Assembly (NCBI RefSeq): GCF_003790525.1
Contig: NZ_CP033635.1
DNA length: 64,000 nucleotides
Direction: 5' to 3' (one strand)
DNA from: Escherichia coli
Lineage (GTDB): Bacteria; Pseudomonadota; Gammaproteobacteria; Enterobacterales; Enterobacteriaceae
Positions 14,001-32,710 of this stretch are shown here, one piece after another (position 1 is the first letter of the stretch; every line of letters starts with the position of its first letter). The notes beneath the pieces are model-generated. The model made no database searches, had not been told where the DNA came from, and worked only from the letters and a program-made list of their open reading frames with translations. The translations under genes were made by a program, and so were the position numbers.

Positions 14001-17000
14001 GGGGCAAAACAGGCCGGCTCTTTGCTGATGAAAACCTCCGGGACAGGCAGCCGTGGTATCTGGGCCACAGGGAAAGGGAGCAATGTCCTGGCTGATGCTG
14101 GCAGTGATTTCCAGATCCTGGGCGCTCAGGCTCAGGGATTATATGTAACTGGTGGTGCGACAGCGACGCTGAAACAGGGGGCATCAGTTAACCTTGTAGG
14201 GGATGGCGCTGTTGTCGCGGAAGTTGACGGAAATGAATACGCTCTGGATGGCAGTATTACACAAACGAATACTGGCTCGGTTATTACCAATGAGGCAGAT
14301 ATCTCTTCGCCGCTGAATAATGCCAAGGGCTTTATTACGCGTAATCAGGGACTGTTGATTAACAGCGGCAACATTGATTTCACTACCGGTACAGATAATA
14401 TCGGCGTCTGGGTTGATAATGGTCGTTTTGAAAATACAGGAAGCCGTATAGCGGTCAATGGCGTTGCATTATTTGTTGAAGGTGAACACGCTCAGATTAC
14501 CAGCACGGGAGGGGATATCGTCGCTGTGGATGGTGAGGCTGCCATTAAGCTGGGGGCGGGCGCGTCACTGAACCTGGCAGGGAGTGGCCTGGGAACGATC
14601 GAAGGTCAGAAAAATGCGCATGGCATCCTGCTGGATACAGGGGCTGTGGGGCTGGTTATTGATGGTGCGAAAATCAATGTTAATGCTGCAGGTGCGGTCG
14701 GTCACGGGATTGAGAACCGTGCAGAAATTGAAGGCATTCAGTTAACCAATACGACTGAAATTAATGTGGCTGATGGCATTGGTGTGCGAACTTCTGCTTC
14801 TCTGGCCAAGACCAACAGCGGCACTATTAATGTAGACGGCAGTGGAATTGCACTGGCGTTCCAGAAAGCTGACGGAAGTGAAACCGATAATAACCTGGAT
14901 ATGTCTGACTCCGGCGGATTAGTCATTAATCTGAAAGGCACGGGCGGCACGGGTATTTTCGCCAACACTAAAGATGGTGCTGTCGTGAAGAGTGGTGCAA
15001 GTGTCAATGTTACACAGGCCGATGGCGGTTCCGCTCTGGTGGTTAACAATGCGGCCAGTGAAGTGGTTCAGAGCGGTAATCTCATCTCTGCTTCTCTGAG
15101 TCATGCCGTAGTGGATGCTTCAAAAGCACAGTCCTTTACCAATAAAGGTCAGATTAAAGCTGCGTCCGCCACCGGGACTGCAATGGCGTTTGATGACGCC
15201 GTGAATACCACCGTACTGAATGACAGCGGTGCTGAAATTCAGGGGGTTGTGGCTCTGAACGGCGGTGATAACACATTCACCAATAAAGGCAGTATTACCG
15301 GAACCGTCAGTGCAAAAGAGGGTAACAATACATTTTTATTTGATGATGGCAGCATACTGACAGGAGAAGTGGCTGCAGGAAATGGCAATAACAATGTAAC
15401 GCTCAATGGTAAGGCTCATGTTGATAAGGTTACTGCCGGTACCGGGAAGAACACCTTCACCATTAAAGGCGAAGGGGCAACCTGGAACCTGCTGGATGGC
15501 GGGCAGGGAGATTCTGATTCCCTGATTTTTGATAACGCCATTCATACGCTGGATTCTGCTGTAAAACTACGGAATTTTGAACATGTCGGGCTGAAGAACA
15601 GTTCGCTTGTCACTCTGAAGGAAGCTCTTGTGCTGACCGATGGGGGGACCGGCCCGGGTTCCGTCGATATTGAATCGGGCAGCGAACTGGCCATTATTCC
15701 CGCAGTTGCAGGCAACTTTACCTTTGATCCACTGTTAACAGGCAAAGGAACACTGTCTGCCCGTCTTGATGCCGACACATCTGCTTTTGAATTCAGCCAT
15801 AACGTCGGGGATCAATTTGCCGGAACTCTGAAGCTGGGTACCAGTAGCTTTGCTCTGGAAGGGCTGAATACGAGCGGGTTAACCCATGCAATGCTGATGT
15901 CTGAAACCGGGAATATCACAACGGTTGGCTCCGGTGTTCAGCAGATTGGCGGTCTTGGGTTCAATGGCGGAACGCTGATTTTTGGTTCCGTTATGCCGGG
16001 CGATACCATTGCCAGCAACAGTATTGAAACCTCTGCTGCAGGTACGCTGGATATCCGGGGGAAAGGCACAATTCAGGTCACCATGCCAGATGAAGTGATT
16101 AATGATATTCCGGCTGTTGATACCCGTAAGAATTTGCTGGAGCAGGATGATGCGCAGACCCTGGTCACACTGGTGAATGCAGCGGGTACCGTCACCGGTA
16201 CTGGCGGGCAACTGCAACTGGTGGATGAAAACGGGCAGGCTATTTCTCACAGTCAGACGTTTGATGTCACTCAGGGCGGTGAAGTTGTAGCTCAGGGAAA
16301 TTATGACTATAAGCTGCTGGGAAGCTCCGACGGTGTTAAAGGTGACGGACTGTACATAGGCTATGGGCTGAAGTCGCTGGATTTACAGGGAACCGGTGAT
16401 AAAGCGCTGGTGCTGACACCGAGAGCGAATGCCCAGGGACTGCAGACAGATCTTGGTGCACAGTTAACGGGGGCAGGGGATCTGGCCATCGAAGCTGCGG
16501 GGCAGGTTGTCACACTGTCTAACGGCGGTAATAACTACACCGGGGATACGCTGGTGCGCAGCGGCACACTGCAGATGGCAAATGATAATGTGCTTGGCGC
16601 TACAGGTAGCCTGAACGTTGCCAGCAATGCCGTCTTCAGAACAGACGGATACAGCCAGACGGTGGGTGCACTGCAGACAGAAACGGGAGCGCACATTCAG
16701 CTTGATAGCGGTAGTGTACTCACGGTCAGCGGCACGCAGCGTCAGCCGGGCGATGATAATGGTGGCATCATTGAAAACAATGTGCTGACCGGAGACGGTA
16801 CGCTGGCTGTCACGGGCAGCAATCTGACGGTACATGGCACCAATATCGGGTTCACCGGTAATGTCAGCCTTACCCGGGGTTCGCTGGTTGAAATGAACGG
16901 CGCACAGGGGCTGGGAAGCCAGGGCTCCATCAGCTTTGAAAGCCTTAATGATCGCCTGGCGATTGATATCGCCGACGGTAGCGGAGTCAGCAGTAACCTG

Positions 17001-18932
17001 AGTAAATCGCTTTCCGGAAAAGGTTCAGTGGGCATACTGAACACCACTGATCTGACACTTTCCGGAGATAACCGTAATTTCAGCGGTGAATTCCGTGTGC
17101 AGAAAGATGCTGCTCTGCGGGCTTCAGATGAAAAACACCTGGGCACCGGGCTGATTGACAGTGATGGTGTCACCTGGCTTACCGCCAGTGGAAACTGGTT
17201 ACTGAAGAATGATATTACTGGCTCCGGCGCTCTGGTGAAACAGGGGGCGGGTAATCTGATCATTAATCATGAGCTGACTTATACCGGTGATACCACGGTT
17301 GAGAATGGCGTTCTGATTGTCGGTGATGATTCAGTCACCCGTGCCGCTGGCGCGACGTTGTCAGGATCCAAAAACATTCATGTTCTTAATGGCGGCACAC
17401 TGAGTGGGCTGGGGACCGTTTCGGGTCAGGTTAATAACCAGGGAACACTGGCATCACTGAATGCTCTCTCAGGTTATGAAACGGCAGAGGCGGGCAATTT
17501 TACCGTTGGCTCACTGACCAATACCGGCGTCATTCGTCTGGCCGGTGGTAAGACAGGAAATACCCTGACCGTAAATGGCGATTACACTGGTGGCGGTACG
17601 TTAATTATCAATACCGTGCTGGGGGATGATACTTCTGCCACTGACAAACTGATTGTCACGGGTAACACCTCCGGTGATACCGGCGTGGTGGTGAATAATG
17701 TCCGGGGCCAGGGGGCTCAGACCGCTGACGGCATTGAGATTGTGCATGTCGGTGGGCAGTCTGACGGTAACTTCAGACTGCAGAACCGTGCGGTGGCAGG
17801 GGCATGGGAATATTTCCTGCATAAAGGTAATGCGGGTGGTACTGACGGTAACTGGTATCTGCGTTCTGAATTGCCGCCAGAACCACAACCGCAGCCGCAG
17901 CCACAACCGCAGCCACAGCCACACCCCACGCCGGATAAACCTGTACAGAAGGTCTATCGTCCGGAAGCGGGCTCTTATATTGCGAACATAGCGGCAGCCA
18001 ACACGCTGTTCAACATCAGAATGCACGATCGTGAGGGGGAAACTTACTATACCGATGTGTTTACTGGTGAGAAGAAAGCAACAAGTATGTGGATGCGTCA
18101 TATCGGCGGTCATAATCGCTGGAAGGACAGCAGTTCACAGCTGAATACGCAAAGTAACCGTTATGTTGTGCAACTGGGTGGCAGCATTGCGCAATGGACT
18201 GACGGTCAGGACCGTCTGCAACTGGGGATTATGGCCGGTTATGGAAATGAGAAGAGTTCCACGACATCCTCGCTTTCGGGATATAAATCTAAAGGTGCGA
18301 TCAATGGATACAGCACCGGTTTATACGGAACGTGGCAGCAGAATGACGGTAATGACAACGGGGCTTATGTCGATACCTGGATCCAGTACGGATGGTTTAA
18401 TAATACCGTTAATGGTGAAAAACTGGCTGCGGAGTCCTGGAAATCCCGTGGATTTACCGGTTCAGTGGAAGCGGGTTATACCTTTAAAGCCGGCGAATTT
18501 ACCGGTAGCCAGGGTAGTCACTATGACTGGTATATTCAGCCGCAGTCCCAGATCACGTGGATGAATGTAAGAGCCAGTGAGCATACGGAGAAGAATGGCA
18601 CGAAAGTTCAGCTCAGCGGAGACGGTAATATCCAGAGTCGTCTGGGCGTCAGAACTTACCTGAAAGGTAAGAGTGCGTCTGATGATAATAAGGCGCATCA
18701 GTTCGAGCCATTTGTGGAAGTTAACTGGATCCATAATACACGGAGCTGGGGTGTCAAAATGGATAATACGGCACTCAGTCAGGACGGAGCTACAAATATT
18801 GCTGAAGTCAAAACGGGTGTTCAGGGTAAATTGTCAGATAACCTGAATGTCTGGGGCAATGTTGGTGTTCAGGCTGGCGATAAAGGGTACAGTGATGCCC
18901 AGGCAATGCTGGGTATTAAATATATATTCTAA
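11019..18932 (+). CDS. upaE: giant AIDA-I-type (type Va) autotransporter adhesin
   Basis: The 2637-aa ORF starts with an ESPR-type extended signal peptide (MNKIYKVIWNHTTQKWDVVSELT). A long Gly/Asn/Thr-rich beta-helical passenger follows, then a PQ linker and a C-terminal beta-barrel ending in KYIF. The symbol follows the ipuR-linked locus of CFT073. Confidence 0.85.
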   Translation: MNKIYKVIWNHTTQKWDVVSELTSCRKKCKSTRLGIALSAMVLGGAIAINCNNAMADVILSPDWRPGTNNSGVGAATVSGKTEYITGPNVVQSGGSGLIWMTVEQAILNGYTTGDNLSGLIYVNTGEKTKTITVKDEVTGAYQTLQVFDTDSFSQRDAGTGGNETIPGFSGTADFFNATRFVTANNGGTAILDVGSPAIGNFFKNTQLAVADGEGSSVVWNSVNDFYFQPGATMQGGGVTQKIIDSMKYAGTITDWAGKVHHINSLDDLKQYNQYLIKSLEDKTLSYKQYDAEFNKALIVTKHNYNVDMTAGGRIDSTPYKENVGLLAVLHATNNARAILGKTGKLTGVLPAYGNGGGIVATNGGTGVNEGVIDAIGTEMIAYQDSTIVNDGTLFVWDNNDKYALQAEGMVAGSNGSSAINNGVINIRPFKNAFAPEGINTAIVVSNGGMATNKGTINITADASTNDNNGKTRGVNVGAGGSFINSAFGSINVGIAEDKTATHSAVGSVAIEVQNGANKVVNEGTIFLGRGAQGNYGILAKDAGSVDVVNKGTITIDGYDSDAPALNVGMLANNSSGMKNSGIINVNGLNSTGLQVINAGQLNSDGTINVGGEGISSGFRNYGAWVEGARSNVNVSGKINLSGTGAVGVFAKDGGSLTLSGNGAVLFGSSDQIGFYVYGKDSAIHNTGSGVMDVSTENSTLFRIASGATFQGTADASSALTASGKNSYALIATGKSDGGVASTVTSGGMTINLTGEGATATLIEGGAQGTIESNAIINMDNASAIAGIADGNGYDISGKLINPKDKTTLLTAGAQLSSTQDKVTGYIARNGATLNNTGNIIFTGKNTVGVRVEEGAVGTNSGNITVQDGGVGLIANATQDVTTINNSGNLVLKGGDNANRTTGIKASGTTTTVNMTAGTISLQGQGAIGVEASNKGTVNLDGSAVPNFASDGSGITDQIAFRIIGDGATIKTNIAPGTLLDASGERSVLFRIEDGAKQAGSLLMKTSGTGSRGIWATGKGSNVLADAGSDFQILGAQAQGLYVTGGATATLKQGASVNLVGDGAVVAEVDGNEYALDGSITQTNTGSVITNEADISSPLNNAKGFITRNQGLLINSGNIDFTTGTDNIGVWVDNGRFENTGSRIAVNGVALFVEGEHAQITSTGGDIVAVDGEAAIKLGAGASLNLAGSGLGTIEGQKNAHGILLDTGAVGLVIDGAKINVNAAGAVGHGIENRAEIEGIQLTNTTEINVADGIGVRTSASLAKTNSGTINVDGSGIALAFQKADGSETDNNLDMSDSGGLVINLKGTGGTGIFANTKDGAVVKSGASVNVTQADGGSALVVNNAASEVVQSGNLISASLSHAVVDASKAQSFTNKGQIKAASATGTAMAFDDAVNTTVLNDSGAEIQGVVALNGGDNTFTNKGSITGTVSAKEGNNTFLFDDGSILTGEVAAGNGNNNVTLNGKAHVDKVTAGTGKNTFTIKGEGATWNLLDGGQGDSDSLIFDNAIHTLDSAVKLRNFEHVGLKNSSLVTLKEALVLTDGGTGPGSVDIESGSELAIIPAVAGNFTFDPLLTGKGTLSARLDADTSAFEFSHNVGDQFAGTLKLGTSSFALEGLNTSGLTHAMLMSETGNITTVGSGVQQIGGLGFNGGTLIFGSVMPGDTIASNSIETSAAGTLDIRGKGTIQVTMPDEVINDIPAVDTRKNLLEQDDAQTLVTLVNAAGTVTGTGGQLQLVDENGQAISHSQTFDVTQGGEVVAQGNYDYKLLGSSDGVKGDGLYIGYGLKSLDLQGTGDKALVLTPRANAQGLQTDLGAQLTGAGDLAIEAAGQVVTLSNGGNNYTGDTLVRSGTLQMANDNVLGATGSLNVASNAVFRTDGYSQTVGALQTETGAHIQLDSGSVLTVSGTQRQPGDDNGGIIENNVLTGDGTLAVTGSNLTVHGTNIGFTGNVSLTRGSLVEMNGAQGLGSQGSISFESLNDRLAIDIADGSGVSSNLSKSLSGKGSVGILNTTDLTLSGDNRNFSGEFRVQKDAALRASDEKHLGTGLIDSDGVTWLTASGNWLLKNDITGSGALVKQGAGNLIINHELTYTGDTTVENGVLIVGDDSVTRAAGATLSGSKNIHVLNGGTLSGLGTVSGQVNNQGTLASLNALSGYETAEAGNFTVGSLTNTGVIRLAGGKTGNTLTVNGDYTGGGTLIINTVLGDDTSATDKLIVTGNTSGDTGVVVNNVRGQGAQTADGIEIVHVGGQSDGNFRLQNRAVAGAWEYFLHKGNAGGTDGNWYLRSELPPEPQPQPQPQPQPQPHPTPDKPVQKVYRPEAGSYIANIAAANTLFNIRMHDREGETYYTDVFTGEKKATSMWMRHIGGHNRWKDSSSQLNTQSNRYVVQLGGSIAQWTDGQDRLQLGIMAGYGNEKSSTTSSLSGYKSKGAINGYSTGLYGTWQQNDGNDNGAYVDTWIQYGWFNNTVNGEKLAAESWKSRGFTGSVEAGYTFKAGEFTGSQGSHYDWYIQPQSQITWMNVRASEHTEKNGTKVQLSGDGNIQSRLGVRTYLKGKSASDDNKAHQFEPFVEVNWIHNTRSWGVKMDNTALSQDGATNIAEVKTGVQGKLSDNLNVWGNVGVQAGDKGYSDAQAMLGIKYIF
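17874..17933 (+). repeat. CCNCAR dinucleotide-codon repeat encoding the (PQ)n linker PPEPQPQPQPQPQPQPHPTP
   Basis: The repeat ccacaaccgcagccgcagccacaaccgcagccacagcc is read directly. It lies between passenger and barrel, as in AIDA-like autotransporters. Confidence 0.9.
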
Positions 18933-18979: not shown

Positions 18980-19510
18980 ATGAGTTCTGTAATGAAATTT
19001 TCTGTTGTTAATGCAGTAGTGCTGCTGTTGCTGATTGTACTTACTGGTGTTTTTTATATGAAAAAGTCAAAAGAAATTGCAGTTGTTAATATCGATGCTA
19101 TTTATAATCAGTCTGCCGCCGGAGACATGGCCAGAAAACATCTGAATGAGGTTAAGAGTATTCTTGAAAAAGGATATGAGGATGCGCAAAAAGTATTCGC
19201 AGATAACGCGAATAAAGAGGCGCTGCTTCTTGATGCCAGACAAAAACTGGAACGACAATATGTTATTGAGGAAAATAGCGCAAAAATGGTGTTATCCCGT
19301 GCGATAGATAATGCTATAGGCACATGGAGAAAAGACAATCCTAAAAATATTGCCGTATTGTCTTCAGGTGTTGTGCTTGCGCATAACGAGTCAGCTGATA
19401 TCACCAAAGAAGTCATGACTCTGGTTGAAAAAGAAAATCTGGTTTTTAATAAATTACCCAAAGTGGAAGTGCACAATAAGAATGAAGAGAAACCAGAACA
19501 AAGTAAGTAA
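18980..19510 (+). CDS. Skp/OmpH-like periplasmic chaperone paralog
   Basis: The 176-aa ORF has an N-terminal hydrophobic segment, then IAVVNIDAIYNQS followed by a long charged helical region. This is the OmpH-family pattern. The start could be 18992. Confidence 0.6.
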   Translation: MSSVMKFSVVNAVVLLLLIVLTGVFYMKKSKEIAVVNIDAIYNQSAAGDMARKHLNEVKSILEKGYEDAQKVFADNANKEALLLDARQKLERQYVIEENSAKMVLSRAIDNAIGTWRKDNPKNIAVLSSGVVLAHNESADITKEVMTLVEKENLVFNKLPKVEVHNKNEEKPEQSK

Positions 19511-20183: not shown

Positions 20184-20432
20184 ATGCGCACACAGGTTGT
20201 ATTGCAAAAATGGGGTAATAGCATTGCCCTTCGACTAACGGGAAACCTTAAAACCGTTCCGGGGTTTTCAGTGGGTGATATCGTCAACGTTGAAATTAGT
20301 GAAAAGGGGCTTTTTGTAGAAAAGCCTGCACGCCGTCGCCTGAGTGAAGCCGAATTACTCGCCGGGATAACGCCAGTTACAGCGCACGCGGACGAAATTG
20401 CCACCCCATTCAATGAGGAGGTTGATTACTGA
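20184..20432 (+). CDS. MazE/ChpS-like antitoxin (AbrB/SpoVT fold)
   Basis: The 82-aa ORF contains the motif LQKWGNSIALRL, characteristic of MazE-type antitoxins. It has an acidic C-terminus and a TGATG overlap with the toxin gene. Confidence 0.8.
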   Translation: MRTQVVLQKWGNSIALRLTGNLKTVPGFSVGDIVNVEISEKGLFVEKPARRRLSEAELLAGITPVTAHADEIATPFNEEVDY

Positions 20433-20776
20433 TGTTTGTACCTAAGCGTGGTGATATTTGCTGGCTGGATTTTGAGCCGCAGAAAGGAAAAGAGAGCGGA
20501 AAGTATCGCCCGGCACTCATACTATCCCATGAGCAATATAACCGACTCACCGGGCTTGTCATATGCTGCCCCATAAGTACGAGCATACGAAATGCTCCCA
20601 CAGAAGTTCCGGTAACAAATCTGGACGCCCCCAGCGTGGTAGCAACCACACTCATTCAAACCCTTGACTGGCGTCAGCGGAAAGCGCGCTTAATCACAGA
20701 GGCAGAAGATGGGGTATTTAATGATGTGCTTGAAAGAGTCATTACCCTGATTGGTGGAGAGCATCTGCTTAAGTAA
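20432..20776 (+). CDS. MazF/PemK-family endoribonuclease toxin
   Basis: The 114-aa ORF contains PKRGDICWLDFEPQKGKESGKYRPALILS and VICCPISTS, the MazF/ChpBK pattern. Confidence 0.8.
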   Translation: MFVPKRGDICWLDFEPQKGKESGKYRPALILSHEQYNRLTGLVICCPISTSIRNAPTEVPVTNLDAPSVVATTLIQTLDWRQRKARLITEAEDGVFNDVLERVITLIGGEHLLK

Positions 20777-20819: not shown

Positions 20820-22091
20820 CTATTCTTTCCAGTCAATCCCATCCAGTAAGCACCCTGCCTCATATTGCCCAACAACCCAGTCAAGATTGCAGGACTCATA
20901 GAAAGCGAGGCGATTATACTGTGGCTCGTTTTTTACCAGACCACGAACGGAGCCGCGTTGCCAGTACAGGCACAGATTGGCAAGAGGTGTGATCAGCACA
21001 GCATTGTCCGGGAAAAATGGAACGGTCACAGCCGGAAGATTCCCCAGCACGGGCTTTTTAATGATTTCCTCGTTAAGCAAAATTTCCTGATTCATCTGCG
21101 ATGGATCAAGACGGTTTATCAAAGGCCATTGTTTACGGACCAGAGTATTGTGACTGCATACGGCCACAATGCCTTCCTGCCACTGTTCATCAATCATGGA
21201 TTGCCAGGCATCCAGAACAAGTGCATCTATTGTATGGTGTGTACCGCGTGTATTGCTTGTCGGCGATGAAACAGAAAGACCGCTGATAACCCTTCCCGCT
21301 GCTTCGTTTCGAAACTTCTGCAACCATCCGACGCCGCAATCGTCACGGCCCGGATATGTTTCAGGATCAGATTGATCGGCATAGTGTGTGCCGTTAAAAC
21401 CAATCTGAATTAAATCCAGCCATTTCCGGCGTTCAAAAGCGGCACGGGCGCTTCCTTCAAGACCATTTGCGGACGCGTGAGCATCGACATTGTCGTAGCT
21501 CAACGCAAAATCAAAATTAACCTGCTCGCAGCGGTAGCCTCTTGAAACCAGTGAATGCGCCTGTAGTGGCGAACGGCGCTCGTGAGGTGGCGATGTACGT
21601 GCCAACGGCCGGGAAGCGTCTACCAGCACAACCTGACCTGATATATCCGTAACAGGCACGGGGGTTATTTCAGCAAGGAAATTTGCCTGCCATCCACTGG
21701 CAAGCGTTGCACTCTGGCGGGGAACGGGTTCAACTTCTGACGAATAGCGCGCAGTATCACCGGAAAAGTGCAAATCCTTCGGATGCTTTCCGGTTATCGA
21801 CTCGATAGCGCAATTGAAAACCATCTGAGACTGTTGATTTCGTTGTGATACAACATAATCAGCAGTGCAATTATAACACTCAATGCCGTCGTTATTACCC
21901 CCACCGCTTGCAGTATGCAGGGTGTGAAGCTCAAGCTCACGCTCCAGTTTTTGATATTCATTGTCCAGCGCGCGACGCGTCTCATCGCTTATGCTTGCTG
22001 TGTTTGCTTTCAGGCGATTCCGGGACATTAACTCCCTGAGTCGGCTCACTATATCAGCGCCGTGCAAATGTGAAATATTCAGACCGCCCAT
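20820..22091 (-). CDS. P2 GpN-family major capsid protein homolog with a ~95-aa N-terminal extension (possible fused scaffold domain)
   Basis: The protein is collinear with recalled P2 GpN. CEQVNFDF aligns with CDQINFDF, GWLQKFRNEA with GWLQKYRNEA, GNLPAVTVPFFPDNAVLITPLANL with GNLPAVRVPYFPADAMLITKLENL, and YESCNLDWVVGQYEAGCL with YESMNIDYVVEDYAAGCL. The start was chosen at the TAATG overlap with the upstream gene (MGGLNISH) rather than the ORF-track start at 22232. Confidence 0.8.
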   Translation of the reverse strand: MGGLNISHLHGADIVSRLRELMSRNRLKANTASISDETRRALDNEYQKLERELELHTLHTASGGGNNDGIECYNCTADYVVSQRNQQSQMVFNCAIESITGKHPKDLHFSGDTARYSSEVEPVPRQSATLASGWQANFLAEITPVPVTDISGQVVLVDASRPLARTSPPHERRSPLQAHSLVSRGYRCEQVNFDFALSYDNVDAHASANGLEGSARAAFERRKWLDLIQIGFNGTHYADQSDPETYPGRDDCGVGWLQKFRNEAAGRVISGLSVSSPTSNTRGTHHTIDALVLDAWQSMIDEQWQEGIVAVCSHNTLVRKQWPLINRLDPSQMNQEILLNEEIIKKPVLGNLPAVTVPFFPDNAVLITPLANLCLYWQRGSVRGLVKNEPQYNRLAFYESCNLDWVVGQYEAGCLLDGIDWKE

Positions 22092-22801
22092 TACTGCCAC
22101 CCCCGGCAGAGTTCTCTGCCCTCCGCAAGGTCGCGCATTTTTTCTGGATTCTGTCGCGCCGCGCTCCATTGTACAGGTGAAGGGGCGTTCCTGATTGCGT
22201 GGCTTACCGAATCCGGCAGTTTCTCCGGGCAATAACGAAGCGGATTGGAGGCATCGCTCTCAATATCGTTAATCCGGCCGCGAATCAGCCCGACACTTTC
22301 AACAATATCTGCCATTTTCAGTGTTTCACATATTTTCTTTTCTGCGTTATACAGCGGCTGGCCAAGCAGCTCACATAAACCACGAATCAATAGCAGAGCA
22401 GGGGTCAGCTCGTTAATCAGTCCGGGAAGTGCTTTTGCAAATATCTCTGCCCGCAACTTATTATCAATGCTTTGGTAAGCACAGCCAGCCTCTGCCGCGT
22501 TATAACGACACTCCAGTAACCTGATGCGCGCCTCATCATGCAATACCCGCAGACGCTCAAGATTTTCTCGCGCCACACCCGCCTGAATGCATAATTTTGC
22601 GGAGGCTTCCGTTTTTGCGCCCAGCGCAGACAGGATTGAGTTCTGCCAGTCACGTTCGAGAGACTCCAGCTCCCCTTTCGTCTGTTCGATAGTCGCTTCC
22701 AGATTGGTGATTAATGATTCCTGTTCGCTGAGTTTTGCCATGGCCGTATCAAACTGTGCTTTACATGCCTGATGCCTGGCGCTTGCCTGAGTTATATCCA
22801 T
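22091..22801 (-). CDS. coiled-coil protein, possibly Sid/Psu-like capsid size-determination or decoration factor
   Basis: The 236-aa ORF is predicted helical, with a heptad-rich N-terminus (AKLSEQESLITNLEATIEQTKGELESLERDW). Its size and position (after Ogr/Delta, before the capsid gene) resemble the P4 sid/psu module. An AGGAG RBS is present. Homology is not verified. Confidence 0.45.
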   Translation of the reverse strand: MDITQASARHQACKAQFDTAMAKLSEQESLITNLEATIEQTKGELESLERDWQNSILSALGAKTEASAKLCIQAGVARENLERLRVLHDEARIRLLECRYNAAEAGCAYQSIDNKLRAEIFAKALPGLINELTPALLLIRGLCELLGQPLYNAEKKICETLKMADIVESVGLIRGRINDIESDASNPLRYCPEKLPDSVSHAIRNAPSPVQWSAARQNPEKMRDLAEGRELCRGWQ

Positions 22802-22879
22802 TGTTTGCTCCTGTAATACATTTTTTACTTACGCCCATTTTTTCCATATTGCGTAATACATTCCAGCCGATTTTGTTCT

Positions 22880-22910
22880 CGTAATACGCTCACAATACTG
22901 TTGTATTACG
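22880..22910. promoter_or_regulatory. inverted repeat CGTAATAC-N15-GTATTACG in the divergent promoter region (candidate operator)
   Basis: The repeat is read directly. It lies between the divergent 236-aa gene and the RHH gene. The same 8-mer recurs 8 times between 22813 and 23889. Confidence 0.5.
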
Positions 22911-22965
22911 CTTTCTTATATCGCGGGTGTTAAATCCCGGTATAAGCAATCAGGGAGGCAACACG

Positions 22966-23199
22966 ATGAAAAAACAAAAGAAAATGCGATACGTATTACG
23001 CTGTATTCGTATCCCGCACGAAATCGACCATAAAATAAATCAGATATGTAAGGACAGAGAGATGAACTACTCCCAGTGCGTCAGAATGTTTATCTGTCAG
23101 GGAATTAAGGCCGGGGAAACGCAGGAAGAAGACCGCAACGGGCGCAATGTAGCGGGAGATGTGTGGGCCTGGGCAAATGACCAGAACTACACGACGTAA
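22966..23199 (+). CDS. small ribbon-helix-helix-like DNA-binding protein (hypothetical)
   Basis: The 77-aa ORF starts at the internal ATG preceded by a GGGAGG RBS. The pattern YVLRCIRIPHEIDHKINQICKDREMNYSQCVRMFICQGI fits a strand-helix-helix fold. The assignment is tentative. Confidence 0.45.
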   Translation: MKKQKKMRYVLRCIRIPHEIDHKINQICKDREMNYSQCVRMFICQGIKAGETQEEDRNGRNVAGDVWAWANDQNYTT

Positions 23200-23249: not shown

Positions 23250-23432
23250 CTATGAAGTTTTCAACTTCCTGCGCTTAGTGATGCGTACAAACGACTCAAG
23301 CGTACAAAAACAAGCCCCACACTCAATATTACTGCACTGGTAATACGTTTTGTAGATGTTTTGTTCGTGCTCTTCCAACGAACGACTACGGGTTCGGGCT
23401 GAAGCGCCACAGGCCGGGCAAGGGAAAGACAT
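23250..23432 (-). CDS. Ogr/Delta-family zinc-finger late-gene transcriptional activator
   Basis: The 60-aa ORF has CPACG...CSNIECGACF, four Cys with the Ogr/Delta spacing. A GAGGAG RBS is present. Confidence 0.8.
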   Translation of the reverse strand: MSFPCPACGASARTRSRSLEEHEQNIYKTYYQCSNIECGACFCTLESFVRITKRRKLKTS

Positions 23433-23793
23433 ATCACGCTCCTCTTACTGGTGTGAAATTTGACCTATTATATCTCCTGCCGCCCCCTCTGGCTGTATCA
23501 AATAAACCCGCAGCAGTCGCCGCGTATTACGGACGGACGCACCGTTCCCATGCTCACTCGTCACATTCCCCGTATCAGTTCTCTCTTACCGTAAGAACGG
23601 CTCTGGCTGGCGATAAAACTAACCCGGTCGGGCATTCCCGCAGTCTTTAGAGAAAATGTAATTTACCCCCTGAAACGTGGGCTGTTCCCCCGTCACCTGC
23701 GCGCGAAAAACTCACCGTTTTTTGTGCACGCACGAAATCGCCCTCCGGGTGCGCCAGTACTGGGCCGGATGGGCAAAAAGTTACTCTAAAAAA

Positions 23794-23820
23794 TTGTGCA
23801 AATTTGTGCACTTTTGTGCA
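23794..23820. repeat. three helically phased direct repeats of TTGTGCA (exact 10-bp period)
   Basis: ttgtgca occurs at 23794, 23804 and 23814 in non-coding DNA between the iteron field and ogr. Confidence 0.85.
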
Positions 23821-24046
23821 GATGAACAATAGCGTGAAAAAGAGTGCTTTTGAGAGATTTTTTATGGCAACTGCGCCGCGTGTATTACGTTTTTTACCAT
23901 CCCCGCCGCGCATGTACATACTTCATTTTTCTGCCAGACAACAGGGCAACTCCCCGTGACTGACAGCCCCAAAAAATCAATGATTGATGTTGCATTTTTG
24001 TTAAAGGTTAGACCAGTTGTTTTAGGGCTCTGCCTCATAATCCGGT

Positions 24047-24360
24047 GGGGGGTGCGCAAAGCGGTTACAACGGTTACAACACTCAAAAACACCACTTAAC
24101 AGCATGATTTTAATGGATATTGTTTGTAACCGCTTTGCGGTTACACTGCGGTTACAACGGTTACAGGTTTCAAAAAGCACTTTATTATCAATCAATTAAA
24201 AACTTAACCTGTAACCGCCTGTAACCTAACAAAACGGTTACATGTAACCGCGTTGTAACCGCTTTTATAACTCATCGGACCAGTTATAATATATTGATAT
24301 ATAATACAAAAATAAGTAATTTTAAATTTGTAACCGTTGTAACCGCTTTGCGCACCCCCC
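24047..24360. repeat. iteron field (candidate replication origin): 13 copies of GGTTACA/TGTAACC enclosed by 33-bp perfect inverted repeats, with an AT-rich tract
   Basis: The left arm ggggggtgcgcaaagcggttacaacggttacaa (24047-24079) is the exact reverse complement of 24328-24360. The heptamer occurs in both orientations throughout. The AT-rich stretch lies at about 24280-24327. Confidence 0.7.
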
Positions 24361-24611: not shown

Positions 24612-25616
24612 TTACTCTGCTGGCTCTTTTTCTTCGGTGATCACTATGTTGGCTACCGGGTTAAATCTCATGGCATCTGCCAGATAATCCGGTGCAAAAT
24701 GTGCGTATGCCATAGTCTGCTGAATTGTCGCATGCCCAAGGATTTTTTGTAGCGCAAGAATGTTGCCACCGTTCATCACAAAGTGACTGGCGAATGTATG
24801 CCGCAATACATGCGCAGCCTGCCCCCTCGGTAAATCGGGTTTTATTTTTTTTAATGCCCGGCAAAACTCTCTGTACTTCACATCAAACAGTCGCCCGGTT
24901 TCTTTTGTTTTTACGGCATCGCATATTTCCTGCGACACAGGCACCGTTCTTTTTCTACCGTTTTTGGTTTCCAGAAACGTTATTCTGTTATGAACTATTT
25001 GCTCTCCATGCAATCTGCTGGCCTCACTCCAGCGGGCTCCGGTACAAAGACACAAGAGCGCAACCCTTCGTTGATCTCCATTCAGCCCGTCAAGCAACAA
25101 TGTGACCTCGTTTTTTGATAAAAAGGCCATTTCCCGCTGCTTTACATAAAGAACAGGAATACCACGAACCGGATGCTCTGCATCCCACAAACCGATCTTT
25201 TTCAGGGCTGTAAACATCCCCGATAATCTGTTCATGTATCTGTTTGCTGAGGACGGCTTTAATCCTTCCGCAATTTTCTGCGATCGCCATGCAATGATTT
25301 TTAATTTGTTGAGTTCTGCCGCAAACATGTCAGCTCCAAGCTCATTAATAATTTTGCCAAGTTGCTGTTTATCCGTGTTTGCCTTTCGCCTGTGCTGACC
25401 GTGATAGACCCACCACAATTCCAGTAAATCGCTAAGCGTTCTCCGGTCGCGATAGCCCTGTATAAACTCGCGCTTTTCGGCGTTCGCTATGATGTACCGT
25501 TCAGTTGCTGTAGCTATCGATTTTTTGTCAAATATTCTTCTGATGCGCTTCCCTTTACGTCCGCATGGCCTGATATCGAGCAGCCACCGCCCATCATGCA
25601 TCTTTCTGATCGGCAT
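24612..25616 (-). CDS. P2-type tyrosine integrase (second recombinase of the island)
   Basis: Residues MPIRKMHDGRWLLDIRPCGRKGKRIRRIFDKKSIA ... LCLCTGARWSEASRL ... HVLRHTFASHF ... LGHATIQQTMAYAHFAP are collinear with recalled P2 Int. The ATG lies 2 nt after the primase stop, with a GGAGGGGAG RBS inside the primase 3' end. Confidence 0.85.
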   Translation of the reverse strand: MPIRKMHDGRWLLDIRPCGRKGKRIRRIFDKKSIATATERYIIANAEKREFIQGYRDRRTLSDLLELWWVYHGQHRRKANTDKQQLGKIINELGADMFAAELNKLKIIAWRSQKIAEGLKPSSANRYMNRLSGMFTALKKIGLWDAEHPVRGIPVLYVKQREMAFLSKNEVTLLLDGLNGDQRRVALLCLCTGARWSEASRLHGEQIVHNRITFLETKNGRKRTVPVSQEICDAVKTKETGRLFDVKYREFCRALKKIKPDLPRGQAAHVLRHTFASHFVMNGGNILALQKILGHATIQQTMAYAHFAPDYLADAMRFNPVANIVITEEKEPAE

Positions 25617-25618
25617 GT

Positions 25619-28288
25619 TTAACTCCCCTCCTTGTAACTGAATATCCGGCATTTCAGTACTTCCGGCTCTCTGGCCTCGGCGACCCCTCTTCCGGCGTTT
25701 GCCTGTCTGGAGACCTCACTACGAATGGTTTTGCGGCCTGTCAAAGGTCGGGAACGTCCGGCTGCGAGCAACTCAATCATTTCGCGGTCAGTTCGGATCT
25801 CCACGCGGTGAATAGCGGCAGCCTGTGCCAGTTGCGGAATACTGATAGCAATCCCCTCGCGGCATCCCTTGCCGTAGTGGTTTACACCGTATTTTGTTAT
25901 GCCGTCCAGATAGTCGAACGCCTCCCAGAACGCTATTACTTCCGGCAAGTCATCCGTTACCGCTTTAACTTGTTCCGCTGCCATTCGTTCCAGTTCCTGG
26001 CATGTGGCATTAAGCCATTCATCCGGGATATCAATAACGCATTTCAGCGCCCTGACCAGCGCAATAAGTTGCGCGTGATTTTTGGCAATACGGGGATGGA
26101 GAATATTTTCGCAACCGCAAAGGCGGGTCGTTTCAGGCTCTGAGAGCGCCAGAAACATTTCCATAATTGCCCGTTCACGGCTGACTGCCCGATGAATAAA
26201 CCCTGACACCTTCTCAACGGGGTAGAGTTCCAGTCGTCTCGCCGCCAGCCGGGTATCAGACGAGTGGCGCTTTTTATCGGTATATATGCGAATCAGTCGC
26301 TCAATAATTGCAAGTGAGGCGTTTACCCTGGCATTCTGTGCAATCACGATAGCGCCCTTAAAATCCGGGTCATAGGTGTTGTTATTGTTGGTCTTAACGC
26401 CACGAACGCCGATACCGCCGCCGTTATAGAGGCTTTTCAGGTTATCGAAGTCAAACGCACCTCTTTTTTGCGCATTGCCTCCCCTGTCTGCTTCAATCAG
26501 AACAACAGGTAATCCGGCGACCTGTCCAAAGGTGCGCTTCCAGCCCGCCTCTGATCCTTTGGTTGGATCAACGCCTTCATAGTTGTCACGACCGCACAAC
26601 CGCCAGCAAAAATCAATCAATGTTGATTTACCCGTTCCGGGCTCCCCGGTGACTTCAAGGAAGGGGAAGGATTCTTCTTTATCCCGGATTTGTTCGCTGA
26701 ACAGGGAGCCCAACCAGAAAGCCAGGGTAATAATTCCTTTTTCACCAAAAGCCAGCCAGAGATCTTCCACCCAGGACTCTGTAAACTCATCCGGTTTTTT
26801 GTAGTTAATCTGTAATGTGGGTTTTTCGCTTAATGGTTTTGCGTTTATGCCATCAATTTCAAAATAATCTTCGTCATTGATTTCATAAGTTTTTCCCTTG
26901 TAAACAGCAATATCATTAAACAGCCATGCCCCAATCGCCTTGTTGTATCCGATAAAATCCTGACCAATAACCTCTTTTATTGCGGGAAGGTCATTTTTTA
27001 TTAATGCGTCAAGGTGCGCAGTTGTTCCGGTATAAATGCCGCCTTTTGCCACATGCAACAGGCGTTTTTTAAATTCAGATGCGGATGTCAATTGTCCTGA
27101 TGTAAAGGTGTTTTTCACCGTAGCACCATCCGGGAACGTAACACGGAAGTAATACCATGCTTCATCCGTGTCATTATTTCTAATGTAATAAAGCGGCGCT
27201 GGGTTACAGTTTGCGATTTCTTTTACTGCGCCAGATTCCTTAAGTGCAATTTTGCGCGCTTCATCCTCATCAACACTTCTCTCATTCTTGGCACGCTCTA
27301 CAGCTTTCATATAGCGCTCAATGTCCAGTTTGAACCAGAAAACACGGTTATCAAAAGTAAAATGAAATTCCTTCCGCTCACGAAAGGAAAATATTATTAG
27401 CGCCTTATCTCTCGGAGATTTCGCCAGCAATAAATCACCGTAATGACGGTATCTTTTCACATCATGGCCACGCAGCTTTCCGGCGATGTGTAAATCATTC
27501 CAGTCGCGTTTATTGTTGTTTTTACCTGGCAACGCCGCTGCCGTTCTCCAGCCGTCTTCGGCGCTGCGTTCTGCATGTTTTTTCGCGTAACGCTCACCCG
27601 CACGCCCGTTATCCAGCGCCCACACAATAACCGGACGGGGATTATCCCCGCACAGCTTCGCCAGCTCTTCCAGCGCCTTATCAGGGTAGTTCACGGCAGA
27701 CATGACAGAAACGGCCGCAATGCCATTCTGGTTAAGGCTGATGGCATCAAAGATGCCCTCACAAATCCAGATTTCTTTGGCCTTGCTTAAATCTGCTCCC
27801 GGATAAGCCCACCACAACCCCTTGTAGCTGCCGGAAAAATTCGCCTTGCGCGCGAAGCGTCCCGGTCGGTCTATGATGCGCTCCCACCACACGCCGTCAG
27901 CCAGCGTAAAACGCACAGTAGCGGCCTGTTCGCCGTTTTCCTTGTCCTGGTATCGCTCCTGAGTAAATGCGCCCTTCAGTGGCCCCACAGCAATATTGCG
28001 CGCCTCCTGAAGATAAGCTGCCACCGCTGCATATGGCTCGTCTTTCGTGCTGATATAACGATCTGACCATGATGAAAACACATCCGGGTAAAGTTCTTTG
28101 GTCAGCAGGTCTGTACCGCATTTATTTTCGCGCCCACAGTGTACGATGTACGGCCTTTCAAGGCTGGTAAACAACTCTTTCTTTCCACATTGCGGACAAA
28201 CACCATACCGGAGGTAGTTATTTTCTTCTTTGAAGTTGTAATCACGGATAAGACGGTTAATAATCTCTTTTCTGATGTCAGATTTCAT
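25619..28288 (-). CDS. P4 alpha-like primase-helicase (Zn finger, Toprim and SF3-type P-loop NTPase)
   Basis: The features are CPQCGKKELF...HCGRENKCG (zinc finger), WICEGIFDAISL (Toprim) and VTGEPGTGKST (Walker A). The start was chosen at MKSDIRKE (28288), which has a GGTGGAG RBS. Confidence 0.85.
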   Translation of the reverse strand: MKSDIRKEIINRLIRDYNFKEENNYLRYGVCPQCGKKELFTSLERPYIVHCGRENKCGTDLLTKELYPDVFSSWSDRYISTKDEPYAAVAAYLQEARNIAVGPLKGAFTQERYQDKENGEQAATVRFTLADGVWWERIIDRPGRFARKANFSGSYKGLWWAYPGADLSKAKEIWICEGIFDAISLNQNGIAAVSVMSAVNYPDKALEELAKLCGDNPRPVIVWALDNGRAGERYAKKHAERSAEDGWRTAAALPGKNNNKRDWNDLHIAGKLRGHDVKRYRHYGDLLLAKSPRDKALIIFSFRERKEFHFTFDNRVFWFKLDIERYMKAVERAKNERSVDEDEARKIALKESGAVKEIANCNPAPLYYIRNNDTDEAWYYFRVTFPDGATVKNTFTSGQLTSASEFKKRLLHVAKGGIYTGTTAHLDALIKNDLPAIKEVIGQDFIGYNKAIGAWLFNDIAVYKGKTYEINDEDYFEIDGINAKPLSEKPTLQINYKKPDEFTESWVEDLWLAFGEKGIITLAFWLGSLFSEQIRDKEESFPFLEVTGEPGTGKSTLIDFCWRLCGRDNYEGVDPTKGSEAGWKRTFGQVAGLPVVLIEADRGGNAQKRGAFDFDNLKSLYNGGGIGVRGVKTNNNNTYDPDFKGAIVIAQNARVNASLAIIERLIRIYTDKKRHSSDTRLAARRLELYPVEKVSGFIHRAVSRERAIMEMFLALSEPETTRLCGCENILHPRIAKNHAQLIALVRALKCVIDIPDEWLNATCQELERMAAEQVKAVTDDLPEVIAFWEAFDYLDGITKYGVNHYGKGCREGIAISIPQLAQAAAIHRVEIRTDREMIELLAAGRSRPLTGRKTIRSEVSRQANAGRGVAEAREPEVLKCRIFSYKEGS

Positions 28289-28336
28289 ATATAAAACTCC
28301 ACCCCACTGCACCTTTTGCCGTGGGGTTTTTATTAA

Positions 28337-29289: not shown

Positions 29290-29809
29290 GGCACGCCTCC
29301 CGGACACGGATACGGGCAACAAAGACCAGACGGGATGCCGGAAGCAGGGCGCGCGCTTCGCGCTCACTGGCAGCGGTAACGGTATGAAGGCGGATATTTT
29401 TACCGTGGCACTGCATAAAGCGCCAGATAAAATCAGGGCGTGTTGATATAGCCATTTTGGCGGCTCCTTGATTAAGTTTACGGAGTCTCGCCAGCACGCT
29501 GTCAAACATGGTGGCGGGACGTAACAGGGTTGACAGACTGGCAATCAAGGAACCAGCGAGCGCAAAGGCTCCCCCATTACGCCCCGCCATAATACGGGGT
29601 AGGGTGGAATTACGGGCACAAAAAAACCGCATTACGGAAATATAGCGGCTACCCGCTTGATTGTTCAGGCTGTCAAACCCGGCACCCGCTTTATGAGGTG
29701 CGGGCAAACGATACGCCATGACAAAAAAGCGAGTCAAGCAATATTGCAAATTATTTTTGCGCAATTGCGCTGAGTGATTGATTTTTAAGAGTAAAAAAGT
29801 CATAATCAT
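29282..29809 (-). CDS. Ash-family / Icd-like (cell-division-inhibitor-like) protein, possibly a fusion or with a later start
   Basis: The middle segment (AGAGFDSLNNQAGSRYISVM...RIMAGRNGGAFALAGS) resembles Ash-family proteins of P4-like islands. The C-terminus (FIWRFMQCHGKNIRLHTVTAASEREARALLPASRLVFVARI) resembles Icd-like proteins. Confidence 0.55.
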   Translation of the reverse strand: MIMTFLLLKINHSAQLRKNNLQYCLTRFFVMAYRLPAPHKAGAGFDSLNNQAGSRYISVMRFFCARNSTLPRIMAGRNGGAFALAGSLIASLSTLLRPATMFDSVLARLRKLNQGAAKMAISTRPDFIWRFMQCHGKNIRLHTVTAASEREARALLPASRLVFVARIRVREACHV

Positions 29810-30362: not shown

Positions 30363-30584
30363 TTAAGCCTGAAAACGTTGTTGTTTTCTTTCTTCTATCC
30401 AGTCGATAATTTCCTCTTCAACCCATGCAACCGCGCGAGGGCCTATTTTTATTGGTTTGGGGAATATATCAGATTTTATATCTTCGTAAATTCGAGCTCT
30501 TGATCTCCCTGTGATTTCAATGACTCTGGGGAGTCTTATTAATTTTTGAATCCGCCTTTCGCTGGTCTGTGAGTATGCTGACAT
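30363..30584 (-). CDS. alpA: AlpA/Vis-family phage transcriptional regulator or excisionase (MerR-like HTH)
   Basis: The 73-aa ORF contains LIRLPRVIEITGRSRARIYEDIKSDIFPKPIKIGPRAVAWVEEEIIDWI, the AlpA signature. Confidence 0.85.
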   Translation of the reverse strand: MSAYSQTSERRIQKLIRLPRVIEITGRSRARIYEDIKSDIFPKPIKIGPRAVAWVEEEIIDWIEERKQQRFQA

Positions 30585-31194: not shown

Positions 31195-32457
31195 TCAGTC
31201 TGTTTCGTTAGTCCATTTAAAATCATAGGGGGAAATATATGCCGCCTTGCAGGTGTCGAGATAATCAGCCCACCATTGCAACATTCGGCGGCGTTCCTGC
31301 ATATGTTCAGCTCTGTGAACGTATGCAGCCCGGACACTGCCTCTTTCCCTGTGACTCATCTGAAGCTCAACGGCTTCTCTTGTCCACCTGCCTGACTCTG
31401 TCAGCGCCGAACAGGCCATGGTCCTGAATCCGTGACCACAAATATCTTTTTTTGTGTCGTATCCCATGTGGCGTAATGCCTTGTTAATGGTGTTTTCGCT
31501 CATTGGTTTTATCTGGTAATGGTCGCTGGGGAAAATAAACACTTCATCACCGGATATATTTCTTATATCGTCAAGAAGCTGCATGGCCTGAGTGGGTAAA
31601 GGGATGGCGTGAGGGGTTCCCATTTTCGTTCCACGATATGAATATTTTACGCCTTCTATTTTTTCGCGTTCTGCTGGTATTACCCACATTGATTTATCAA
31701 AGTCAATTTCATTCCAACGAGCAAAACGCAATTCACTTGAGCGAATAAAAATTAATAAATTTAATTTTAGTGCAAATTGCGTTAATAACCGTCCATTCAT
31801 CTTATGGTGGTAATCATTTATTTTGCCAAGTAATTCAGGTAATCGCTCAAGGGGAAGAGCGGGGCGATGTTTGGTTTTATTAGTTTCGATTGCACCGTTC
31901 AGTTCCTGCGCTGGATTGTATTTAATCATTCCATTCTGTACAGCGTAGCGCATAATGGCGTTCATTCGCTGCTTGTTACGTGATGCTGTCTCAAGCACTC
32001 CTTTGTCTTCCATTTTGCGTAAAGGAATCAGTAGATCCATGGTTGTGATCTCGTTAATTGGCCTTTTACCAAGAATGGGGAAGATGTGGTTTTCCAGGTC
32101 TTTTAAGACTTTTTGCGCGTGCAATTCGCTCCAGCCCTTTTTCCGGCTGTGCCATTCTCTGGCAACGTCTTCAAAAAGCACTATTTGAGGTTTTGGTGTG
32201 TGCAGTGGGTCAATGCCTTTAGCCAGGCTCGCCAGATATTCATCACGAGCGTTCCTTGCCTGTGCAAGTGTTACGGCAGGATAAATGCCTAAAGCTCGGG
32301 TCGTTTCTTTACCGTTGATAACCTTGCGAAAGCGCCAGTATTTTGAGCCGTTGGGGTGAACATAGAGATACAGGCCTTTCCCGTCACGAAGTTTTTTAAT
32401 TTTATTGTTGTCCTTATCTGGTTTGGCGTTACGTACAGCTATATCAGTCAGTTTCAT
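31195..32457 (-). CDS. P4-type (DUF4102 N-terminal arm-binding domain) tyrosine integrase
   Basis: The ORF has MKLTDIAVRNAKPDKD...GKGLYLYVHPNGSKYWRFR, and C-terminal HGFRTMA and Y in VRAAYVHRAEH. The start at 32457 has a GGAGGA RBS. The gene lies directly downstream of, and co-oriented with, tRNA-Arg. Confidence 0.9.
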   Translation of the reverse strand: MKLTDIAVRNAKPDKDNNKIKKLRDGKGLYLYVHPNGSKYWRFRKVINGKETTRALGIYPAVTLAQARNARDEYLASLAKGIDPLHTPKPQIVLFEDVAREWHSRKKGWSELHAQKVLKDLENHIFPILGKRPINEITTMDLLIPLRKMEDKGVLETASRNKQRMNAIMRYAVQNGMIKYNPAQELNGAIETNKTKHRPALPLERLPELLGKINDYHHKMNGRLLTQFALKLNLLIFIRSSELRFARWNEIDFDKSMWVIPAEREKIEGVKYSYRGTKMGTPHAIPLPTQAMQLLDDIRNISGDEVFIFPSDHYQIKPMSENTINKALRHMGYDTKKDICGHGFRTMACSALTESGRWTREAVELQMSHRERGSVRAAYVHRAEHMQERRRMLQWWADYLDTCKAAYISPYDFKWTNETD

Positions 32458-32635
32458 TATGTTGATCCTCCAGACGGGTACAAATAAAAATCGAACCAAG
32501 CATACCCGCTTTTATACCCATTTTAATATGGGCTTCAGGCAAATTTAACGAGAGAAAATGAGACAATGGGAGATGTTTAACTCATTGAAAGTAAATGGAT
32601 AATGGTTTTTTCTGAGAGGTTGCAAGAAGTTGCGA

Positions 32636-32710
32636 TGGTGTCCCCTGCAGGAATCGAACCTGCAATTAGCCCTTAGGAGGGGCTCGTTATATCCATTTAA
32701 CTAAGAGGAC
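32636..32710 (-). tRNA. argW: tRNA-Arg (anticodon CCU)
   Basis: The reverse complement reads GTCCTCTTAGTTAAATGGATATAACGAGCCCCTCCTAAGGGCTAATTGCAGGTTCGATTCCTGCAGGGGACACCA. It forms a cloverleaf with a CCT anticodon in CTCCTAAGG and an encoded CCA end. Confidence 0.93.

Follow-up and report, generated by a model that had tools for sequence, protein, structure and literature searches.

Within a 64,000-nucleotide stretch of Escherichia coli DNA (contig NZ_CP033635.1, assembly GCF_003790525.1; this whole stretch is referred to hereafter as the window), an element of ~12.5 kb occupies approximately positions 20.1-32.7 kb, beside tRNA-Arg(CCT). The element is a P4-like satellite, and it carries a gene for a P2-family (GpN-type) major capsid protein directly downstream of a gene for a distant homologue of Sid. 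The capsid protein begins with a helical extension foreign to GpN. The parts of this two-gene module are:

20820..22091, minus strand: satellite capsid-protein gene, 423 aa plus stop (open reading frame (ORF), Pfam PF05125, BLASTP, AlphaFold2, Foldseek, and ratio of non-synonymous to synonymous substitution rates (dN/dS))
21837..22091, minus strand: N-terminal extension of the capsid protein, codons 1-85 (model structure, clade-wide conservation, dN/dS)
22091..22801, minus strand: Sid-like gene, 236 aa, its stop overlapping the capsid ATG in TAATG (hhalign, AlphaFold2, Foldseek)

The capsid gene and its Sid-like partner

The capsid ORF is intact and runs on the minus strand from an ATG at 22091 to a stop at 20820. 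The TAA of the 236-aa ORF upstream and this ATG have one base in common (TAATG), and just ahead of the start is a Shine-Dalgarno-like run, GGGGTGG. This overlap, pointed out in the initial annotation, is plainly seen in the sequence, and the two genes are tightly coupled family-wide. Near-identical copies with the same start are found in other E. coli genomes, where RefSeq names the product 'P2 family phage major capsid protein'.

Residues 86-419 constitute a complete P2-family (GpN) HK97-fold capsid protein. They are collinear with residues 3-340 of P2 GpN (34% identity, BLASTP E 2e-66), and residues 132-419 match Pfam PF05125 (Phage_cap_P2) with 248.1 bits and an E-value of 1.6e-73, well above the gathering cut-off of 27, so that the earlier claim of collinearity with GpN over the last ~330 aa is borne out. 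The protein also matches phrog_70 of the PHROGs collection with 262 bits. An AlphaFold2 model (predicted local distance difference test (pLDDT) 81, predicted template modelling score (pTM) 0.70) shows the full HK97 fold, with N-arm, E-loop, P-domain and A-domain all predicted. Its best Foldseek matches in the PDB are GpN of the P4 procapsid 7JW1 (chain 7JW1_B, E 4e-29) and the phiRSA1 capsid, with target-normalised template modelling (TM) scores of 0.73-0.80 against 7JW1 and 7OZ4 chains. The capsid body (codons 86-423) is under strong purifying selection, with a dN/dS of 0.04 at a dS of 0.27.

Homologues of the satellite clade score at least 262 bits, are 393-497 aa long and come from E. coli, Salmonella, Klebsiella, Erwinia and Pectobacterium, as against at most 200 bits for ordinary phage GpN in the same comparison. 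In a neighbour-joining tree the clade (39-49% internal identity) forms a single deep branch, monophyletic and with all sampled phage GpN as its sister group. We examined 22 loci, 12 of the satellite class and 10 of the phage class, and scanned their flanks within 9 kb. All 12 satellite-class loci, from at least six enterobacterial genera (among Escherichia, Klebsiella, Enterobacter, Erwinia, Izhakiella, Kluyvera and Apirhabdus), have the order Ogr/Delta – Sid-like ORF (236-264 aa) – capsid, the activator falling beyond the sequenced stretch in locus L026; Ogr/Delta was thus seen upstream of the module in 11 of 12, that is, wherever that flank was present. Homologues of P, Q, O, M and L, as well as other head genes, were absent within 9 kb of every satellite-class capsid gene, and Q-P-O-N-M-L was present at each of the ten phage-class loci.

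We also asked if the gene might be what is left of a decaying head operon of a P2-like prophage, no longer functional. Such a reading could appeal to the nature of the host element, a chromosomal island that IS21 interrupts elsewhere in some copies. However, among the 56 complete E. coli genomes with this variant the two-gene module is always chromosomal, and in 55 of them it is intact; the capsid body evolves at the low dN/dS given above, and the module is conserved across genera with no fragments of P, Q, O, M or L beside it. We reject the remnant explanation as hardly credible, and the proposal made at the outset, of a satellite-encoded capsid gene as opposed to a truncated O-N operon, holds.

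The 236-aa protein encoded upstream is a distant Sid homologue. It has no family in Pfam, NCBIfam or PHROGs, and its own family amounts to 18 clusters among 1.8 billion representatives. A profile of this family aligns in register with P4 Sid (hhalign E 5e-5, probability 67%, columns 49-141 against Sid 52-144), and hhalign gave no match between the family and Psu. The AlphaFold2 model consists of long helices (pLDDT 92.8). When it was compared by Foldseek with 350,000 PDB chains, the top two matches were P4 Psu (3RX6) and P4 Sid (7JW1_E), at weak E-values of 0.09 and 0.12, respectively; the TM-score to P4 Sid is 0.48 over 242 columns. These results agree with the initial description of the partner as Sid/Psu-like.

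Sid binds the 'sir loop' of GpN, residues 183-224 (PMC7552001). In pairwise alignment the satellite protein has 7 residues fewer than P2 GpN in the equivalent stretch, which contains a motif, 'RVISGLSV', conserved in the satellite clade. These differences in the loop, together with the clade-wide motif, are consistent with a co-evolving pair of Sid-like and capsid proteins.

The N-terminal extension and the scaffold protein GpO

The initial annotation had noted an N-terminal part of the capsid protein without counterpart in GpN, which is true of residues 1-85. The AlphaFold2 model of this extension has helices at residues 11-29 and 36-60 (pLDDT 80-94) and a disordered Gly/Asn-rich linker at 62-84, which leads into a GpN-like N-arm. 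Conservation throughout the clade follows the same layout: helix 1 with the pattern 'DF..RIK.LI.RN', helix 2 with 'SPE.R..IE.EN.KLE.EL', and then a Gly/Asn/Ser-rich linker of variable length. With a dN/dS of ~0.28 (L018 against L022), the extension is translated and constrained.

The same annotation had likened the extension to the extreme C-terminus of the P2 scaffold/protease GpO, which it gave as …SKATGGGGDALMTNC. These residues match the actual P2 GpO sequence, but the likeness, centred on 'TASGGG…CYNC', is neither significant nor conserved in relatives. Residues 17-67 align with GpO 225-278 at a BLASTP E-value of 1.8; by Smith-Waterman the score is 36, with a single-pair E-value of ~0.06, and it was equalled by 5 of 100 shuffles. 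Residues 1-134 did not match Pfam Phage_GPO (PF05929) even at E ≤ 10, a search in which the P2 GpO control scored 5.6e-110. The Gly-run and Cys motif is degraded in relatives that are 94-96% identical, reading 'NGIERYNR' in P0001 (94%) and 'IERYNC' in FDAARGOS_1299 (L001), and the look-alike of the GpO tail 'R-P-x-A-T-G-G … T-D-C' is confined to the sub-lineage of the window, being absent or degraded in other clade members. No region of the 85-aa extension corresponds to the serine-protease domain of GpO (GpO residues 1-141).

Descent from another part of GpO deserves separate consideration. The 3' part of an O gene could have been captured together with N and fused to it with an internal coiled-coil deletion, which would make the extension truly derived from the scaffold region of GpO and the product a self-scaffolding GpO-C-terminus::GpN fusion. 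Homologue searches with P2 GpO gave only relatives at least 78% identical; diverse GpO proteins were taken from phage records and viral contigs, and the extension was compared with 11, and later 27, of them. A weak signal recurred, in which helix 1 aligned to GpO 180-197 (hhalign score 18.1, P 0.01-0.03). Column shuffles did not reproduce it (0 of 200 reached 18.1, the highest being 13.6), but the reversed profile scored 13.3, and larger GpO and satellite profiles brought no better P. Independent satellite/GpO pairs repeatedly placed satellite residues 2-5 at GpO 179-187. The best pair, P0005 against phage 186 GpO 182-218, has 11 of 36 residues identical without gaps (score 54, single-pair E ~5e-4), and satellite 'NFADRIKEIL' lies in the same register as 'NFADSIKRLF' of phiRSA1 GpO. 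The succession of helix, helix, Gly-rich tail and GpN residue 1 also parallels a gene order of O and then N.

Other searches were less favourable to GpO descent. In HMMER, a hidden Markov model of the GpO C-terminus gave satellite N-termini 0-7 bits in inconsistent registers, which is not significant. Four of 23 GpO ORFs came within the first 33 non-self HMMER matches among 4969 ORFs, a result that leans towards GpO without being significant. A profile of the extension, searched against 5.8 billion proteins, matched only fragments of its own family and no GpO. With no single test significant after correction, no Phage_GPO match and the GpO-like C-terminal motif limited to one sub-lineage, we regard descent from the GpO scaffold as possible, though somewhat unlikely. 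The extreme C-terminus, from which the extension had been supposed to derive, gave no signal of this kind; the only recurrent one concerns the different segment GpO 180-197, and it is suggestive, not proof of homology.

A side observation concerns the junction of the two genes. A 115-aa predicted protein on a contig fragment (P0260) has a Sid-like C-terminus in frame with the capsid extension ('…CKGLSQGGLTMNPLDRARALF…'), and is either a natural Sid-like::capsid fusion or an artefact of assembly or gene calling.

The host satellite and its candidate cos site

The remaining features of the element are as follows:

20184..20776, plus strand: MazE/MazF-type toxin-antitoxin pair (Pfam PemK_toxin), at a variable cargo position downstream of the capsid gene
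22802..22926, minus strand: DNA upstream of the Sid-like/capsid operon, containing 'GTAATAC' repeats and a 'ATACAACAG' element
22927..23199, plus strand: small divergent ORF, lying between ogr and the Sid-like gene; related elements have one of similar size and orientation
23250..23432, minus strand: Ogr/Delta-family zinc-finger late activator, 60 aa (Pfam PF04606, E 2.3e-11)
23667..23834, minus strand: conserved non-coding block, candidate cos of P88-like type, with three TGCACAA repeats and 'GCGCGCAGGTGACGGGGGAACAGCCC'
24063..24338, unstranded: candidate replication origin, 13 GGTTACA copies in both orientations, with G-rich inverted 'GGGGGGGTGCGCAAAGCGGTTACA' arms on either side
24612..25652, minus strand: second tyrosine recombinase (Pfam Int_N and Phage_integrase), directly downstream of the primase gene and overlapping its end
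25619..28312, minus strand: Toprim primase/replication protein, 897 aa (Pfam Toprim_2/3; phrog_1139 E 2e-297)
29507-29594, minus strand: C4-type antisense immunity RNA (Rfam RF01695, 74.6 bits)
29620-29701, minus strand: isrK-like RNA (Rfam RF01394, 50.6 bits)
30363..30584, minus strand: AlpA-family regulator (Pfam PF05930, E 5.5e-17)
31195..32499, minus strand: P4-type integrase with arm-binding and catalytic domains (Pfam), 53% identical to P4 Int
32636-32710: tRNA-Arg(CCT), adjoining the integrase gene

Read from the tRNA along the minus strand, the order is integrase, AlpA, C4-type and isrK-like RNAs with an Icd-like ORF, primase, second recombinase and iterons, followed by Ogr/Delta, the small divergent ORF, the Sid-like gene, the capsid gene and the MazEF cargo. 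The Rfam C4 target a1b1 was also matched within 29507-29714, and these RNA matches point to RNA-based immunity of the P1/P4 type in a region that overlaps the Icd-like ORF. The primase and P4 alpha are of different families, and tblastn between the two gave an E-value of 0.002 over just 27 aa. Of the 18 GGTTACA heptamers in the window, 13 cluster at 24063-24338, which by this pattern is a probable replication origin for the adjacent primase. The second recombinase keeps its internal position in loci L015-L017 and is absent in L018; multimer resolution is one possible role.

The divergent intergenic region that separates the small plus-strand ORF from the Sid-like gene has five GTAATAC/GTATTAC copies (22813-22993), which, judged by their arrangement, may be an operator for some regulator. 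The small ORF itself has no Pfam match. No Psu-family protein was found in the element by Pfam, hhalign or blast, and the capsid gene sits at the position after the Sid-like gene. Relatives have at the cargo position GmrSD with a type I restriction-modification system, Hok/Gef, or a uracil-DNA glycosylase (UDG)-family gene, and this position thus behaves as a hotspot, similar to the one for defence genes in P4. In E. coli FDAARGOS_1299 the same core lies elsewhere in the chromosome, between hpt and gcd, with a different integrase; Klebsiella, Erwinia and further E. coli have the core too, and there the capsid gene is followed by defence or toxin-antitoxin cargo. Direct repeats of attachment (att) sites were not detected with a 12-nt seed.

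The non-coding block at 23667-23834 (~170 bp) is 70-81% identical in four distant, otherwise diverged satellites, and ~80% identical to a block of P88-like (Xuanwuvirus) phages. In P88 this block adjoins the portal gene, which is the cos position of P2-like genomes, and both ends of the linear record NC_049391 fall within it. The window has no copy of the P2/P4 cos 19-mer, even when as many as 3 mismatches are tolerated, and blastn-short with P4 and P2 ends returned nothing meaningful. Of 5426 complete E. coli genomes, 1152 contain the block, which in most cases is 80-83% identical to that of the satellite; strains that carry the satellite, MIN10 and ETEC4071 among them, have it twice. The presence of the block in about one fifth of complete E. 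coli genomes makes P88-like prophages very common potential helpers. The element (12.5-12.8 kb) stands to P88 (35.8 kb) in the same ratio as P4 to P2. By these comparisons the helpers are probably P88-like phages, and not P2 itself.

Upstream of the Sid-like gene, several relatives have 'TCTGGCC…CTTACAACAAAAGC', in which 22 of 26 bases (counted by hand) equal the P-O late-promoter region of P88; on this likeness the Sid-like/capsid module is a putative late operon. A canonical TGT-N12-ACA Ogr site is absent upstream of the Sid-like gene.

Outside the element, positions 11019-18932 encode a 2637-aa autotransporter for which a near-identical genome gives the name of the phase-variable adhesin UpaE, with the invertase genes ipuA and ipuB upstream of it in that genome. 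An OmpH-like ORF (18980-19510) follows the autotransporter, and the region is part of the tRNA-Arg (argW) island adjoining the satellite.

Possible roles and known systems

We give about an even chance to the proposition that the product of the gene is a functional major capsid protein specific to the satellite, expressed from one operon with a co-evolved Sid-like external scaffold, in a ~12.5-kb P4-like satellite with a P88-like helper. Upon helper induction, an Ogr/Delta-type activator of the satellite or the helper would turn on the Sid-like/capsid operon. The satellite capsid protein would then form small procapsids, probably T=4, guided from outside by a cage of the Sid-like protein, while the N-terminal hairpin could act as a tethered, delta-domain-like internal scaffold or as a recruitment module aiding assembly. 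The helper would provide the portal, GpO protease, terminase, head-completion protein and tail. Its GpO protease may cut away the extension and the N-arm, and its terminase may package the satellite via the P88-type cos. This scheme builds on what both proteins are and how they fold, on the conservation of their pairing and context, on the purifying selection, on the satellite anatomy and on the match of the cos region to P88-like phages. Size redirection by a satellite with its own capsid protein would be immune to helper escape mutations of the 'sir' type.

Several observations weigh against a dedicated satellite capsid of this kind. The sub-clade L024-L027 and P0018 lacks the N-terminal helices (they are vestigial in P0014) and has a protein of ~360 aa; because one sub-clade does without them, the extension is not essential to module function, and the self-scaffolding proposed in the initial annotation cannot be essential to the module either. 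The capsid protein reaches just 135 bits against TIGR01551 in NCBIfam, under the equivalog cut-off of 219.65, and is by this measure a divergent subfamily of P2-family major capsid proteins and no TIGR01551 equivalog. It is only ~35% identical to the capsid proteins of P88-like phages and of P2, a level at which its fit with the portal and protease of the helper cannot be taken for granted. The assignment of 23667-23834 as the cos site is probable by its position and the record ends, and does not come from mapped termini. The window copy of the upstream region keeps only 'ATACAACAG', without the clear late-promoter motif of its relatives. No ORF of the window has a Pfam match to Ash/epsilon, which is present in the relatives L016 and L018. 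Lastly, the particles are a prediction from the genes, and we infer their composition, T number and cleavage, as well as the role of the extension.

The satellite protein might instead take part in a lattice made mainly of helper GpN, as specific capsomers (e.g. pentamers, or some of the hexamers, with the Sid-like protein bound to them) that force a small capsid. There is precedent for such co-assembly in Ccm of SaPIbov5 with phage φ12, a capsid homologue that occupies the pentamers (PMC8569155), and every other head protein must in any case come from the helper. The sir-loop region of the satellite protein is moreover closer to P88-like GpN than to P2 ('RVMNDVTLTS' in P88-like phages, 'RVISGLSVSS' in the satellite), which makes mixed lattices and shared binding of the Sid-like protein conceivable. 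Sid-type cages, however, bind hexamers (PMC7552001), no sequence mark of a pentamer-only protein is apparent, and the co-evolved Sid-like/capsid pair reads more simply as a self-contained shell system; we regard co-assembly as rather unlikely. An improbable alternative is that the protein poisons helper head assembly through dead-end complexes with GpN, GpO or the portal, acting as an anti-phage or helper-suppressing factor and not as a structural part of transducing particles. Helper suppression is common among satellites, the gene adjoins a hotspot of defence and toxin-antitoxin cargo, and the segment that helix 1 weakly resembles, GpO 180-197, lies at the boundary between a proposed portal-binding region and the scaffold domain, and the helix could compete with GpO. 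A pure inhibitor would, nonetheless, need neither a whole HK97 fold held at a dN/dS of 0.04 nor cross-genus pairing with a Sid-like scaffold and a putative helper-type cos. The sequence analyses presented here do not separate a satellite-specific shell, co-assembly and interference.

A more elaborate version of the satellite-specific shell, which we put forward tentatively as a minority possibility, is that the satellite has freed itself from the helper capsid protein by means of a GpO-derived self-scaffolding capsid fusion which, with the Sid-like cage, builds small capsids on a P88-like portal. If true, the lineage would be an evolutionary intermediate between capsid-redirecting (P4) satellites and the phage-inducible chromosomal islands of the capsid-forming kind (cf-PICIs). 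The module would also offer a natural experiment on the co-evolution of an external scaffold with a capsid protein, a possible route for satellites to escape helper resistance by sir-type mutations, and a defined system for tethered N-terminal scaffolding of a P2-type capsid protein. The defence and toxin-antitoxin cargo of these satellites is relevant to horizontal transfer. In the open-access literature on P4-like satellites (PMC8628076, PMC10085698, PMC13586616, PMC13612085, PMC7552001), we found no description of P4-like satellites encoding a GpN homologue; satellites of P88-like phages were likewise not found described in open-access literature.

Compared with P2 GpN (7JW1, PF05125), the satellite protein has the same HK97 fold and is collinear and 34% identical over ~335 residues; it differs by its 85-aa helical extension and its shorter, clade-conserved sir loop, as well as by a location without O, P, Q, M and L. 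P4 is the textbook satellite without structural genes, which reshapes the helper capsid by Sid alone. The element shares with P4 (sid–delta–psu) a P4-type integrase at a tRNA, AlpA, a C4-type RNA, a primase, an Ogr/Delta activator, a Sid-fold protein, a putative helper-type cos region, a hotspot for cargo and a length of ~12 kb. Unlike P4, which has no capsid gene, the satellite family encodes one; it lacks Psu, and has a different primase family, a second recombinase and a candidate cos of P88-like instead of P2 type.

In layout, though with no homology claimed, the helical N-terminal domain, flexible linker and N-arm resemble those of HK97-type capsid proteins with a delta domain, whereas P2-family phages normally have a separate scaffold/protease, GpO. 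SaPIbov5 Ccm of Staphylococcus aureus is likewise a satellite homologue of a helper HK97-fold capsid protein, and redirects capsid size (PMC8569155), but belongs to an unrelated sequence lineage and host and works without an external Sid-like scaffold. The cf-PICIs (e.g. EcCIEDL933) build their capsids with a capsid protein of their own and use helper tails (PMC10085698). They also encode portal, protease, head-tail adaptors and terminase, whereas in this element just the capsid protein and the external scaffold are encoded. A sister lineage, widespread and equipped with both a Sid-like protein and a GpN-type protein of its own, would exemplify a third strategy that lies between 'redirect' and 'build your own'.

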